A DNA stretch of 54,636 nt, filler included, from Dirinaria sp. TL-2023a (lineage: Eukaryota), in assembly GCA_051941275.1 (NCBI GenBank). It is 2 parts of 2 records of this genome, joined end to end, with 100 filler letters (N's around TTAATTAATTAA, not from the genome) between each part and the next. Parts side by side here need not be neighbours in the genome. Positions count along the whole stretch, not along the records: positions 1 to 27,342 come from JAVEBF010000145.1; 1 more part is not named here. One strand, given 5' to 3'. The notes beneath the pieces are model-generated. The model had not been told where the DNA came from and ran no database searches. It worked only from the letters and a program-made list of their open reading frames with translations. Position 1 is the first letter of the stretch. Each line of letters begins with the position of its first letter. Of the stretch, positions 11,364 through 27,342 are shown piece by piece. A program made the translations under genes and the position numbers.

Positions 11364-13353
11364 TCACTTCGATTTCTTTGCCTTTTTCTTCGGCCGTTCC
11401 TCCTCTACAGGATCCGAGTCCGCATCACCGTCGGCCATCTCCGCGTCTGATCCACTCCCACTGCTTTGATGCTCGGAGTCATATTCTTCGGCCACGTCGG
11501 ACTCAGAACCGGATTGGAAGTCTTCGTCTACGCTCTCCTCGTCTTCGTCTGCGGATCCACGATCAGCTCCAGCGGCGACGACTTCATCGTCCGATGAAGC
11601 CATGTCAGCATCCTTGAGAGCGGCCGCGATAAGTGCGCTGGAATCGTCAAGCATTTCGTTCCTTGTCTTCAGACCTTTTGCCTGGAAAAATTCCTCTAGT
11701 GGTTGTTGTTCCTCACTGAGAGCGCAATTAGCTGGGAAACTCTTCGAAGGAATTCAATTACCGGTTGATGTTGCTGAATTGATGCTCACCAGCACCTCCT
11801 TTCATCGTAATAGTAATATCAAAAGTTCGGCTAGCGGACACCGCGCCGCCTACTCTCGACATGACAATGACGGCTATATTGTCAAATGCAATATATGTCG
11901 CTGGCTTCGGCACAAACATAAAACTCTTATCCAGGCAGAAGAGATGGCCTTCGTTGGCCTTAATACTGCATTTGACACCGGATTGCTGATGATGGCTATT
12001 GAAGCATCAGTGGGCAACTCGTTCCAAATAAGAGCATGCATTCAATAGATCCAGATTTGGTTGAAGGTTGGCTAGACGTACCTTACGAAGTCTTTCGAAG
12101 GCGTAATGACCTTCTTTCCCGCCAGCCCACGGAACACTTGAGCAACAACAGAATGCTGCGGCGACTCGTAATGCGCGGCCAACTTGCCCTTGTATTTCTC
12201 TTCAAGCAGCTCCCTAATGGCTGTTAGCGGCAATAACACTATTGAGGCGGCATTATGCGTACTCCGTCATGTTGAGATCGATGACAACCTCTTCCTCTCG
12301 CTTGAATTGCATTACGAGGAATGGGTACCGAGTCTGGCCTTGGCGTAAAGGTGGATCGAGCCCAATGGTAATTAGTGTATGGAGATCGTCAGGCTTAGGG
12401 AGTAACATGAATTTCTTGATGTTCTCGTACGGAATCTTATAGTCGTATGTTTTTCCGCGTAAGCGGAATGAGGTTTCGTACATGTCCACGTCAAACCGGC
12501 CCCTGGATAGATGTCAGCAAAATTCTGCGTGTATAGCATAGCGTATGTCATGACGGACCGAGGCGTCAGATGCAGTATATCCAGGAAGGTTGCGAACGTG
12601 TCTCCAGCGACTTCTCCTATCTCCGCCTTTTCCATCAAAGTCTCATAGAAAAGCATTGCGGCATTCTGCTCTTCTGCTTCTGATCCGTCTACGCTCTTCT
12701 CTTCGCCTTCTTCGTCTCTCTCCTTCTTTGTCACAGTCCCGGGAAGGTAGAACCTCATCTCCACCAACTGGTCTTTCGCGCCGCCTCCCTTACGCCCTCG
12801 ACTTCGGGCGCCTCCAAGGTGCCCATTTGTACCCGTCTCACTGCCGCCAGCTGGTAGCGAAAACTCAACTGCCACTTCGTTCTTGCCTGCGAGGTTTGTA
12901 TTGGATACTTCTGAATAGGGTATCTCGAAAGCGGGGCGGTTCTGCACGTTGAATGAAAGCTCTGCTTTGCCGAATTCGCCCTTGCCCCAGTTCCAACCTC
13001 GCAGTGCATGCTCCTTATTCTCCAAGTTGATGCCGTAGAAGAGCTTGAAGACCTTACTGACACGGTCGTAATCCTACAGTAGTCAGTTCACTGTTAACCG
13101 TTTTTTTGGTGGTGTGCACCCTCACTTCCTGATCAAACCCGTCTAATTGTATGATGCCTGAGGTGCGTGACAGAATCTTGAGCTCGTAGCCCTTAGCTGC
13201 GCGACTCCATTGTGCTGCGCCTATATTACTGCCGTCAAGGGTGAAGGTATCACCTCCGCCTGAGGGCTTCCAACCCAGTCCGCTCTCGGCTATCCTGCAT
13301 TTGCCGGACTGTCTCGAAAGATCTAAGTAGATACTTTCGAACGACTCCATCAT
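11364..13353 (-). CDS. POB3: FACT complex subunit Pob3/SSRP1 (multi-exon)
   Basis: ESFESIYLDLS..GKCRIAESGLGWK, LRGWNWGK, LTPRGRFDVDMY, FRLRGKTYDYKI, GLDPPLRQGQTRYP, and an acidic C-terminal tail ending in PKKKAKK. Confidence 0.97.
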
Positions 13354-23563: not shown

Positions 23564-25016
23564 TGTGTTCTTGAAACATATATAAGGATCACCTCTGACG
23601 AAAATTTCTGGGCTGAATCACCGACTTTTCACGAAATATCACGGTGATTTTAGTCCAACCGAGAAAGTCAATTAAAAGCATTTCCCACACAAGATCCTAA
23701 GCATATACATTGATCAGATATCGACATTTCTGGGAGCATTGGCCACTGAGGGACACAGGACCAGCCGTCGAATTCTGCTTCGTAGCGGCGGCAATAACTC
23801 GCAAACCCGTATGAGAATTGAAGCATACCGTCCGCTCTACGCCTGTCCTGTTAAATTGGGTTTCACAGATTGGCCGTATGGCACGAGAATGGTTTGGAGG
23901 GAAAGCAGTCATGCGAGACATGCGTGCAGTTACAAGGACAGACCACGTCCGGAGCAAGTGCATTGGGGAACGCGATGCGATTTGGCGCCGTAGCATTGAT
24001 TTGCTTCACACTCTTGCTGTCCGGGCCGTTGTTGCCCGAAAAGCATCTATCCCGATATAGCGGTAGCATGGAAACATACGAGGACCTCCCCGGCAGGCTG
24101 CCGTCTGGAGGAATATCATACTCAATGCACAGATATAATCGTCACTTGCGGCAGCGCAATCTGAAGCATCTACGCAAGGAGGATTACCTTGCTAAGTACC
24201 GTCAACAGAACGACGGAGATTGTTGCGGTGGACCTTCCGGCATGTTCGTACGTCTTCTCTACTCAAGACTTGCTGCCAAGTGCAGAACCGAATATCTTCC
24301 TTGGCATCTGAAAAGATTGGAGGAAATATTTCGTAGTTGCTGAAACAAGACATTTTTTACCCCTGGAGGTAGCGTGGTCTTTGCGCTATCTCGATTTCTT
24401 GCTCTTTGACCGCCTACGTTGAACAGCCACTATTGCCCACGATACGCCCGCCCCTCCTACCGCTTTTGCCAAAAGGCTAATAATGTAAGAAATCGGGCAC
24501 TGCCTGGTAGAACAGAGACATCTGAGAATGTGAACTCGGGGTTACGAGTATTGCAGCTGCGTCTGTCTCGTACACGAGCTGGCGAGAAGTCATTTTTTTC
24601 CCTCTTTTTTCAGAGACACAATGGTGCGTGTTTTCCCGCAAACTGTCTCCTTCTCTTGGTTATTTTTCAGTGATTGTCGATAAGTCAGGAAAGCGGTTAG
24701 TCCTGATAGCGTGATCCCTTAGTTAGATACTGAGCATTGAGCGAGCATCGTTGTAGCAGCTTGGCTGATGTAAGCCCGTTTGCAGCAGATGCAGCAAGGA
24801 AAGACGAACCGCTCTTGCCAATGATTGAAGCCAGTAAAGGAAAACGTAGACAACCTTCTTGCCTACTGATAAATGAAATGCTCATATCAGCGTTAAAGAT
24901 TTAAGTGGGAATCGGCAGGAACAGAAATTATCATCAGAAGAATAACTAATTTACGTATCTATGCTAAATTTTTGATGATAGTGCATATAATATTCAATTC
25001 GACGCAATATTCCGGT

Positions 25017-25154
25017 CAAGCGGGTGGGTAGTTGGCGCAGTGATAAAAATACCGAGACAACGATGAAGCTAGAGCCTGACATACGCTGAGTGGCTTGGTC
25101 AGTAAAGGTCCGAAGTGTTCAAATCTTCGGATCTGAGATTTTCGGCCTTTTTTT
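25017..25154 (+). ncRNA. Putative Pol III-type / tRNA-derived non-coding unit, copy B
   Basis: TATAATA 24986-24992, A-box-like TGGCGCAGTG 25033-25042, B-box-like GTTCAAATC 25117-25125 in the loop of a 9-bp hairpin (25107-25133), then T-runs at 25139-25142 and 25148-25154. Confidence 0.55.
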
Positions 25155-25205: not shown

Positions 25206-25733
25206 CAAAATTGCCCTAGGGTTTCCCGAGTCACTGCACATTTCCGGGCGGTCATGGAAATCAAGGTATTGATGGTTTGTCTTGGATAGAACATGTCTCT
25301 TTCTGCGGGCTTGGAGCGTTTGTTTGTATTTCTGTTGGCATGTGATTGATTAGCGAGACTAAGGCTACGCTAGAGGACTGCTTTTTTAAAGGTACTTACA
25401 CGCAGCTTTCCGTTAAATCTTGTATCCGGATTACAGACCCAGCGAGAAGCGAGCATTATAGCACTGTATAAGAACAGTTGGAAAATTGGCGTACGCAGCA
25501 ATACGCTTTTGCATTGTCTACGTCTTGGGTAGTGTGTTCTGCTCGATGAATCTTGGAAAACGATCAGCGAGCAAGGCTTCGAAGCAGATAAATGAATGCA
25601 AAAGAATATATGTTCTTTTTGAAACGTTCCATTGTAGCGAAATTTGCGCAGCAGGCGAAGCATTAGTCTGCCATGCGACCTAGTATAGGTTCCCAGCCCA
25701 CGCGTCCTTATGAATGACACACTTTATTCTCCT

Positions 25734-26168
25734 TCAAACATCGTTCGACCCTAAGGCAAGATTATGAGAATTCTGCGACAAAGTCACCCTTACTCCTCGG
25801 CTTTGCAAACTCGGACTGGTGACAAAGAAATCGTGCTTGACGTCAACGTCCCTCTCGCGATCCGTGTCATACAACTGCATCCGAGTCCCGAGTCTCCTAA
25901 ACACCGTCGCAAGTGCCAGATGAATCTCCGCTTGAGCTAAATTCATACCAACGCATTGACGCGTGCCTTTTCCAAAATGAAATAGATATTTGAGCTTTTC
26001 TCCCTTGTCCGAGCCCATCCATCTTGAGGGGTCGAAGTTTCTGGGTTCCGGGAATATATTAGGATCATCGTGCAGATCTTGTGGGCTCATTCCGACGGGC
26101 GTACCAGGCGGAATCACCCAGTCTCGAAACGTCAAGCTCTTATCAGGGTGAACCCGTTGTAAGCGATG
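25734..26168 (-). pseudogene. Cytochrome P450 3' portion (trichodiene-oxygenase-like), interrupted by LTR insertion
   Basis: HRLQRVHPD, IPPGTPVGMS, PERF-like FPEPRNFDPSRW and heme motif FGKGTRQCVG. Similarity stops just after the ExxR region, exactly where the LTR starts at 26169. Confidence 0.85.
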
Positions 26169-26388
26169 TGTTACGAGCATGCACCTGGTATACTACCTGG
26201 GGCAACACCTCCCAGGGCTCTCAGGGGTAATGCGCTAACCCGATCGGGGTGTTTACCCGACACCCGCACACGCATATATACCTGGGACCCCCTATTGTAT
26301 CTAGCTTCTCTTCTTCTTCTTTCCTTCCTTAGTGATAATATCTTAGTTAACTATACCTGCATTGACTTGCTCTGCACCGGTCCTAACA
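26169..26388 (+). mobile_element. Long terminal repeat (220 bp), probable 5' LTR of a Gypsy/Tf1-like element
   Basis: Termini TGTTACGA...TCCTAACA (7/8 inverted match, TG..CA), internal TATATA 26275-26280 and a CT-rich tract. Abuts the broken P450 frame. Confidence 0.75.
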
Positions 26389-26433
26389 CTATATTATCAC
26401 TCCATCTAGCTGAGGATGTAAACTTCAGATCAC

Positions 26434-26650
26434 ACTCGCAATACTTGCGGACGAGTATAACCTCCGCAATTGTCGCAACATGATGTTTCCCTGCTCTTGT
26501 GGTCTGGGCATCGTTGCACCAAAACTCGCAATACTTGTGGACGAGTATAACCTCCGCAATTGTCGCAATGACGTGTTTTCCTGCCCTTGTGGTTTGGGCA
26601 CTGTTGCAAACTCGCAATGCTTGTGAACGAGTATAACCTTCGCAATTGCC
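26434..26650. repeat. Tandem repeat, about 86-90-bp unit, about 2.5 copies
   Basis: ACTCGCAAT(A/G)CTTG..ACGAGTATAACCT.CGCAATTG starts at 26434, 26524 and 26610. Confidence 0.9.
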
Positions 26651-26729
26651 GGTGGCCCTCTTGTGGTTAGTACACTGGTGGCCCTCTTGTGGGTTAGTAC
26701 ACTGGTGGCCCTTTTGTGGTTAGTACACT
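26651..26729. repeat. Tandem repeat, 26-27-bp unit x3
   Basis: GGTGGCCCT(C/T)TTGTGG(G)TTAGTACACT at 26651, 26677 and 26704. Confidence 0.92.
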
Positions 26730-27342
26730 GTTTAAGTCCGTGCCATCTGGAGGATGCGAGAAGGCCCTACACGGCTGGGCAATCGACTCATTAGGAACCC
26801 TTCATGGCCAAGTCCTACAGTGAGCCTGCTTCAATGGCATCGCCAAGGCCTGTTCAGGCACCCCTCAAAGCCCTGCGCGGCAGGCAACATCGGCAAGGCC
26901 TGTTGATGCAACAGTGAGCCTGCTTCAATGGCAATCACATCGTCAAGGCCTTTTCAGGCATCTCCGTGTTATGGTGGGACCAAATCCAACGCCAAATAAG
27001 GGCATACAAAAGGGTTGACGGCTGGGAAATTTGGGTGCACACGACTGCCAAATATACCACAAAAGCACCGCCAGATAACCCGACAAATCGTCAATGCACC
27101 ATGGCCTGCTCAACCGCCATAACCTTCCTCAAAGCCCTGCGCGGCAGACAACAAACACACACAGCGAGCCGGCTACAACAGGCACTTTCCTACAATGTCA
27201 ACACGCACAGCAGGCCTGCTACAAAAGGCACAAAACATCGGTGTAGGGTCAACATCTATTGGCCAGAATATTAGGATACAAACTTGGAAGGGAACAAGTC
27301 GCCATACCGGGTACAAACGCTAGGAATTGGACCTTCAAGAAC

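Follow-up and report, generated by a model that had tools for sequence, protein, structure and literature searches.

A dispersed, structured family of putative RNA polymerase III genes in Dirinaria sp. TL-2023a and a remodelled relative of uncertain function

Is the intergenic element at positions 25017 to 25154 of a 54,636-nucleotide (nt) stretch of the genome of Dirinaria sp. TL-2023a (GCA_051941275.1) part of a dispersed noncoding RNA family of the RNA polymerase III (Pol III) type? The original prediction had paired this element (copy B) with one lying 22 kb away on the same contig (copy A). It described copy B as having an A box, a hairpin carrying a B box, and a terminal T-run, and proposed that the two copies represent a structured RNA family rather than decaying short interspersed elements (SINEs). 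The follow-up described here covers the whole stretch (the window), positions 1 to 27342 of which are a single contig, and the 27.7-Mb assembly of 3105 contigs. As far as sequence can tell, an uncatalogued, multi-copy, structured family of Pol III type is real, copy A is a decaying member of it, and copy B appears as a remodelled relative of uncertain function.

The sequence blocks that had been named as common to the two copies are all present and collinear on the + strand, and a TATA-like element lies upstream of both. Copy B also has the described hairpin, with a B box in its loop, followed by a T-run. The features of copy B are the following.

24985-24994, + strand: TATA-like AT-rich element (sequence; TATAA starts 31 nt before 25017)
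25017-25043, + strand: family-type head, CAAGCGGGTG (profile built without A or B)
25033-25043, + strand: A box (A-box census)
25060-25091, + strand: shortened core with a possible kink-turn (structure descriptor)
25107-25115/25125-25133, + strand: 9-bp 3' hairpin with the B box GTTCAAATC at 25117-25125 (pair probabilities 0.99 to 1.0)
25133-25154, + strand: 3' module, CTGAGATTTTCGGCC, and T-run terminator (pattern common to family copies, drawn up to include B)
25332-25448, + strand: distal element common to family cassettes (profile match, E value 6.1e-4)

The Pol III type 2 layout is present in copy B, with an A box, a B box, a TATA sequence ~30 nt upstream, and oligo-T (T7, 25148 to 25154). 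A TATA-like element is placed in the same way ahead of real transfer RNA (tRNA) genes of this genome and ahead of family copies. The distance from A box to B box is 84 nt, and the 3' hairpin resembles a relic of a tRNA T arm. Judging from these elements, copy B is probably still transcribable by Pol III. The plan described for copy B holds. Copy A has no internal B box and only T4 as a terminator. Two of the named blocks need correction: ACAAC is not conserved in the family alignments, and AGCCT, although present in both copies, falls in copy A at the family's TGGCCT column, while AGCCTGA of copy B fits the family's GCCTGA at least as well.

We found 18 core-bearing copies of the family, dispersed on 18 contigs (14 by DNA search with copy A, 3 by a second query, and 1 by pattern), and this number is a lower bound. 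Within a copy, an AT-rich upstream element comes first and is followed by a head that contains the A box. The core behind it is ~110 nt long and leads to a variable 3' hairpin and the end CTGAGCTTTTGCC. A B-box-like TTCGAA follows ~65 to 90 nt beyond the end, and a distal element 130 to 165 nt beyond it. In 8 of the 14 own-genome units with a called A box (copy B excluded), the B box is 210 to 247 nt from the A box, and one further case was recognized by eye. The promoter order in this genome is, in sum, TATA, A box, terminator, B box. The distal TAGGG motif resembles a Tbf1 site. Tbf1 motifs are found at ribosomal protein and small nucleolar RNA (snoRNA) genes (part of PMC4138321). A search with the 3' pattern gave 22 matches, 7 of them without any family features.

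Copy A is a core member by two measures: it scores 93.7 bits with the core covariance model R2 (which includes A) and has an E value of 9.6e-45 with a profile built without A. Its kink-turn GA is gone and its 3' module is eroded, and its B-box motif is decayed at ~2879 to 2899, where the family has the downstream B box.

2644-2808, + strand: copy A, a core family member that shows decay (core model and profile)
2863-2998, + strand: decayed downstream B-box region and distal element of copy A (profile match, E value 9.4e-6)

Homologues also occur outside this genome. A pattern scan of metagenomes gave 54 matches, 15 of which score 70 to 79 bits with model R1; by the same model, the remaining 39 are chance matches. 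The 15 lie on contigs from seven assemblies and form three groups by upstream flank, with two assemblies having one of each. From these sequences they are evidently three loci, paralogous to one another, that a single set of close relatives carries, and therefore are not 15 independent witnesses. The upstream flanks of the three loci are unrelated, and their heads are unlike own-genome heads and unlike each other, while the core is nearly identical. The core has outlasted head and flanks, which suggests that selection acts on the RNA. In the metagenome loci, ~10 nt separate the T-run from the B box behind it, which lies within a stretch that resembles a tRNA T arm.

The structure alignment of the core has 24 rows, 16 from this genome and 8 of the 15 metagenome loci, and the consensus structure was drawn from the same 24 rows on which it was tested. 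In it, 92% of 576 cells are paired, and covariation is 0.189, compared with 0.105 in shuffles (0 of 500 as high) and ≤0.06 when the structure is slid. There are 34 G-U cells and 17 A-C cells, a mild vote for the + strand as the transcribed strand. A kink-turn signature (bulge AAT, GA opposite GA, and a closing C-G on a 7-bp stem) is found in 21 of the 24 rows, copy A being among the three without it. A possible pseudoknot of AAGC with a 3' GCTT is 95% paired and never covaries. Two points caution against reading too much into these figures: the number of pairs with two-sided change (5) is not above shuffles (152 of 500), and the compensatory changes are few independent events, mostly single ones, among the related rows from which the structure was drawn.

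Kink-turns consist of a 3-nt bulge followed by tandem G-A pairs and are bound by L7Ae-family proteins such as Snu13 (PMC5061560, in part). According to the 3n rule, G at position 3n permits folding in metal ions, while a Watson-Crick pair there needs protein, as in U4 (a portion of PMC4382518). Position 3n is mostly G in the family rows and a Watson-Crick pair in copy B. By this rule, family cores are predicted to kink in magnesium alone and copy B only with protein. The kink-turn candidate of copy B has its bulge at 25062 to 25064, tandem GA at 25065 to 25066 facing 25088 to 25089, and three Watson-Crick pairs. Copy B matches a strict descriptor here, which was written after copy B had been inspected; 2 of 5000 shuffles match it, and of 863 tiles in the window 1 does.

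Is copy B a relative of this family? The head pattern AGCGGGTG-N(2-12)-TGGCGCAG, drawn from copies A and B, has 2 matches in the 27.7-Mb genome, which are A and B, and its reversed control has 0. Self-matches aside, the best local match of A within the window is B and that of B is A, in both cases narrowly (70 versus 62 for the next tile, and 60 versus 54). Profiles built without A or B were run over 113,704 bases. The head profile finds copy B at 24983 to 25054 (E value, 9.5e-5), and the distal profile finds the downstream element listed above, on the same strand and in order. Among 40 intron-like stretches, the distal element of copy B is the only one that scores on the distal profile, and of 14 other copies only 2 resemble an intron at this element. 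When copy B is aligned to 16 members, 13 of the alignments are equalled by no more than 10 of 500 shuffles, and its best alignment scores to members are 39 to 46.5, versus 29 for the best of 29 tRNA loci. It also has 15 of 17 core letters in common with the decayed family unit L019; that pattern has 4 matches versus 2 in the control.

Several results weigh against placing copy B in the family, or against a folded RNA from it. Model R2 does not find copy B at E values up to 3, and model R1 gives it only 16 bits, which come from head and tail. Without its head, copy B beats shuffles (≤25 of 500) for just 5 of 16 members, and with a tail profile built without A or B it is not among the best 10 of 18 matches. 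The genome search gave no second copy of B, although weak B-like copies may be missed by it, and an exact 29-base probe from copy B found no match in metagenomes. ViennaRNA disfavours the kink-turn fold of copy B by ~8 kcal/mol and gives its pairs a probability of ~6e-5 (sheared G-A pairs and protein are outside its model), and folding of the whole unit is at the level of shuffles (z scores, -0.47 and 0.06). The structured, non-SINE family of Pol III type that had been proposed is borne out for the family of copy A, which has covariation and homologues elsewhere, but copy B stands outside the core model, and the implied membership of copy B in the core family fails, as the core model misses it. 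Weighing these results together, we consider common descent of copy B and the family of copy A to be quite likely. The simplest reading is that copy B would be a family copy minus the inner stems and the downstream B box, with a B box inside its 3' hairpin; this box may be new, or it may be the T arm of the metagenome copies, retained. It is, on these comparisons, best described as a peripheral, remodelled relative and not a typical member.

We propose, with a little less than even confidence, that copy B belongs with a tRNA-derived, multi-copy Pol III family of this fungal group as a paralogue that has been internally deleted and remodelled, and that it is predicted to function or at least to be transcribed. 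TFIIIC is recruited by A and B boxes and TFIIIB by a TATA element, and oligo-T ends Pol III transcripts. In the family genes, TFIIIC would bind the A and B boxes and TFIIIB the TATA element, and the product would be an RNA of 125 to 165 nt ending in oligo-U. The B box would act from beyond the terminator in this genome's copies and from inside the unit in copy B. Copies would be born by DNA duplication and would then die or rearrange. The least certain steps are that the RNA would form a kink-turn between the 7-bp stem and an inner stem-loop, that it would be a nuclear ribonucleoprotein (RNP) bound by Snu13 (L7Ae family) without a methylation guide, and that copy B, its inner stems lost, may have re-formed a simple kink-turn as a minimal version.

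The main rival explanation is that copy B is a family-derived pseudogene or a bare TFIIIC site and that any RNA from it has no function. The loss of the central stems, the single copy, the folding no better than shuffles, and the decay of copy A itself all fit this explanation, as does the fact that the family sheds broken copies. Besides copy B, deletion derivatives are L255, L257, L240, and L019; L255 and L257 (G000:C1505 and C1858) are near-identical duplicated regions with a 40-nt mini-unit in which the family head is fused directly to the 3' module. Against it, copy B still has its TATA element and its A box; its B box fits the consensus, its 9-bp hairpin is perfect, its T-run is long, and the kink-turn descriptor matches at the homologous place. 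A pseudogene is possible, if somewhat unlikely.

An origin of copy B apart from the family, as an independent tRNA-gene relic of the ZOD1 or ETC type whose likeness to copy A comes from a generic A box, a T arm, and T-rich sequence, would account for its T-arm-like 3' hairpin and for the weak similarity of its body once the head is removed. We consider it improbable, since the head and distal element of copy B match at E values of ~1e-4 and 6e-4, while the 29 tRNA loci score no higher than 8.9 bits with the head profile and have no distal match (15 of 44 tRNA matches, all on one mitochondrial-looking contig, were excluded from this control), and since copy B and L014 have 12 identical distal letters in common. 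Copy B as a tRNA gene, intron-broken or initiator, was rejected: as had been predicted, there is no cloverleaf, with no acceptor stem and no call by ARAGORN with default settings (relaxed settings gave 98 calls in the window, which is noise). Elsewhere in the genome, L294 and L296 (G000:C2 and C1162) are related tRNA-like genes with a D loop 3 nt longer and G+C-rich inserts, which ARAGORN calls Gly and Pro.

Motifs of the kind that the original prediction had pointed out would suit a Pol III methylation-guide snoRNA of the box C/D type whose leader is tRNA-like, as in yeast snR52: ACGATGA at 25060 to 25066, one letter off box C, and CTGA at 25076, 25086, and 25133 (box C/D consensus from part of PMC5640933). 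The snoRNA reading built on them is unsupported, as there is no ribosomal RNA (rRNA) antisense above shuffles. The guide search, for an antisense element of 10 to 21 nt ahead of a D or D' box, covered 18S, 5.8S, ~1 kb of 25S, and a partial second large subunit; most small nuclear RNAs (snRNAs) and the large subunit's 3' part are outside it. Within this range, the best rRNA duplex of copy B is 10 nt with one G-U, away from a D box (shuffles, 9 to 11), the second, partial large-subunit copy gives no duplex of ≥10 nt, and Rfam has no match, all of which makes a guide snoRNA highly improbable. The second ribosomal DNA type (G000:C2744, C2009, and C2117; L232, L233, and L236) has a large subunit 79% identical to the main copy, which suggests another organism in the assembly.

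That the family is a tRNA-derived SINE and copies A and B are old insertions would be in keeping with dispersed copies, a tRNA-like head, and a conserved central domain, and the original prediction had named hundreds of uniformly decaying copies flanked by target-site duplications as the mark of an ordinary SINE. What we found instead are ~20 copies, a core kept across lineages though heads differ, and no target-site duplications in 17 units (mean longest repeat, 5.1, versus 5.3 in controls). The TATA element, the downstream B box, and the distal element, which are outside the predicted transcript, travel with the copies. The travelling of untranscribed elements and the lack of target-site duplications indicate spread by DNA duplication, and we give the SINE explanation only a very small chance.

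A rearranged thiamine pyrophosphate (TPP) riboswitch-like aptamer binding a metabolite is scarcely plausible for the family core, for although by eye the core is reminiscent of the Rfam TPP consensus in its 3' half and TPP aptamers contain a k-junction (PMC4005666, in part), a 3'-half profile from 117 bacterial aptamers retrieves the genome's three real TPP elements (22.8, 21.1, and 7.7 bits) with no family core among the best 25 of 59 matches, and the RF00059 search does not list the family. Three TPP riboswitches, L040, L041, and L042, were noted under the Rfam gathering score (36 to 38 bits).

Rfam gave nothing credible for the window at the gathering score or, by E value, for copies A and B, seven family loci, L005, and L208. 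A derivation from U6 was rejected, with no Rfam match, no ACAGAGA box, and alignment at chance for 6 of 8 queries (the other two being marginal, at 47 and 16 of 1000 shuffles). U4 was likewise rejected, with no Rfam match and 190 to 988 of 1000 shuffles aligning as well to the genome's U4. The last nine unit letters of L005, L008, and L014, a conserved 3' end (TGAGCTTTT), can form a 9-nt duplex that includes one G-U with the 3' region of this genome's U6 (L300), which is about the chance level for such a search. By the tests run, the family is not tRNA, U4, U6, TPP, SINE, or guide snoRNA.

A broader proposal, which we put forward as a rather unlikely one, is that lichen-forming ascomycetes have an undescribed class of Pol III RNA that was born inside a tRNA gene. 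Its kink-turn core and 3' hairpin module would bind Snu13 in a new nuclear RNP, its B box would have moved between positions inside, just behind, and 70 to 90 nt behind the terminator, and copy B would be a working minimal form. A separate locus, L028 (G000:C493, ~12700 to 12990, - strand), is a long tRNA-like Pol III cassette with an A box, ~230 nt, a T arm with a B box, and a T-run. It has a box-C-like TGATGA, a 3' module that resembles the one in the family (17 bits; E value, 0.042; R2), and 10 to 13 nt of complementarity to this genome's 18S that is barely above shuffles; it may represent a third type, one that shares this 3' module.

The genes near copy B are of fungal type. Copy B is flanked by a 632-amino-acid open reading frame upstream and, on the other side, by a convergent cytochrome P450 gene, which turns its 3' end toward it. 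Public RNA data with part of the region are limited to two runs from one sample, labelled lichen metagenome (share, 0.06), and they come from a relative whose RNA contigs are ~93% identical to the window over the P450 gene. The organism studied here is accordingly probably a lichen-forming ascomycete. In both runs the contigs span the 3' part of the P450 gene and a repeat and do not include copy B, and such lack of contig cover is no proof of silence. In these contigs, 25404 is joined to sequence like 25302 to 25331 (27 of 30 letters), and 25332 to 25399 is apparently skipped.

25332-25399, - strand: possible 68-nt intron with donor, branch, and acceptor motifs in the 3' untranslated region of the P450 gene (sequence)

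Here a cassette element may have come to serve as an intron; alternatively, the relative may carry a deletion. The P450 frame is interrupted upstream of 26180, and positions 26180 to 27342 are occupied by short repeats, both tandem and dispersed. At 26168 the RNA contig of the relative diverges from the window and has other sequence onward.

Pol III genes of filamentous fungi are poorly charted beyond tRNA, 5S, and U6, and a covarying core that occurs in two lineages and is absent from Rfam makes this family a concrete candidate for a new class of small RNA. Its promoter series, with the B box inside, adjacent, or far downstream, offers a test bed for how tRNA genes turn into new RNA genes, and copy B is of interest mainly as the most remodelled member.

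We found no account of such an RNA family in the literature, of which subscription journals were mostly outside our coverage. Gao, Jones and Rivas (2021) describe an intergenic structure 2, a stand-alone structured RNA of 144 nt in Pezizomycotina, with 223 instances in 207 genomes (part of PMC8216456). It is similar in length and range to the family, but at about one copy per genome it is unlike it; compared by description, the two could still be the same RNA. In Neurospora, the small RNA genes milR-1 to milR-4 are of Pol III type and carry TATA-like elements and poly-T, milR-1 being without A and B boxes (PMC3547838, in part). Compared by description, these genes of a filamentous ascomycete are like the present ones in polymerase type, TATA-like elements, and poly-T, but the family has no conserved long hairpin of the Dicer type. 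Snu13-binding kink-turn RNAs (U4, box C/D snoRNAs, and U3) have a 3-nt bulge and tandem G-A pairs, as does the signature seen in most family rows; the family differs from them in having no guide sequence and a Pol III-type promoter. In yeast SNR6, a TATA element and an internal A box are followed by a terminator that lies after the A box and before the B box (a section of PMC13475603). This U6 snRNA gene of Saccharomyces cerevisiae has the same promoter order as the genome's family copies, a likeness of layout only, whereas in copy B the B box is internal, ahead of the T-run. Yeast ZOD1, RNA170, the ETC sites, and the SNR52 and RPR1 leaders are tRNA-derived Pol III units. Likened by description, they have kept tRNA-type boxes after loss of the cloverleaf, as here; in contrast to units of the ZOD1 and ETC type, the family described here has ~20 dispersed copies and a covarying core in common with another lineage.
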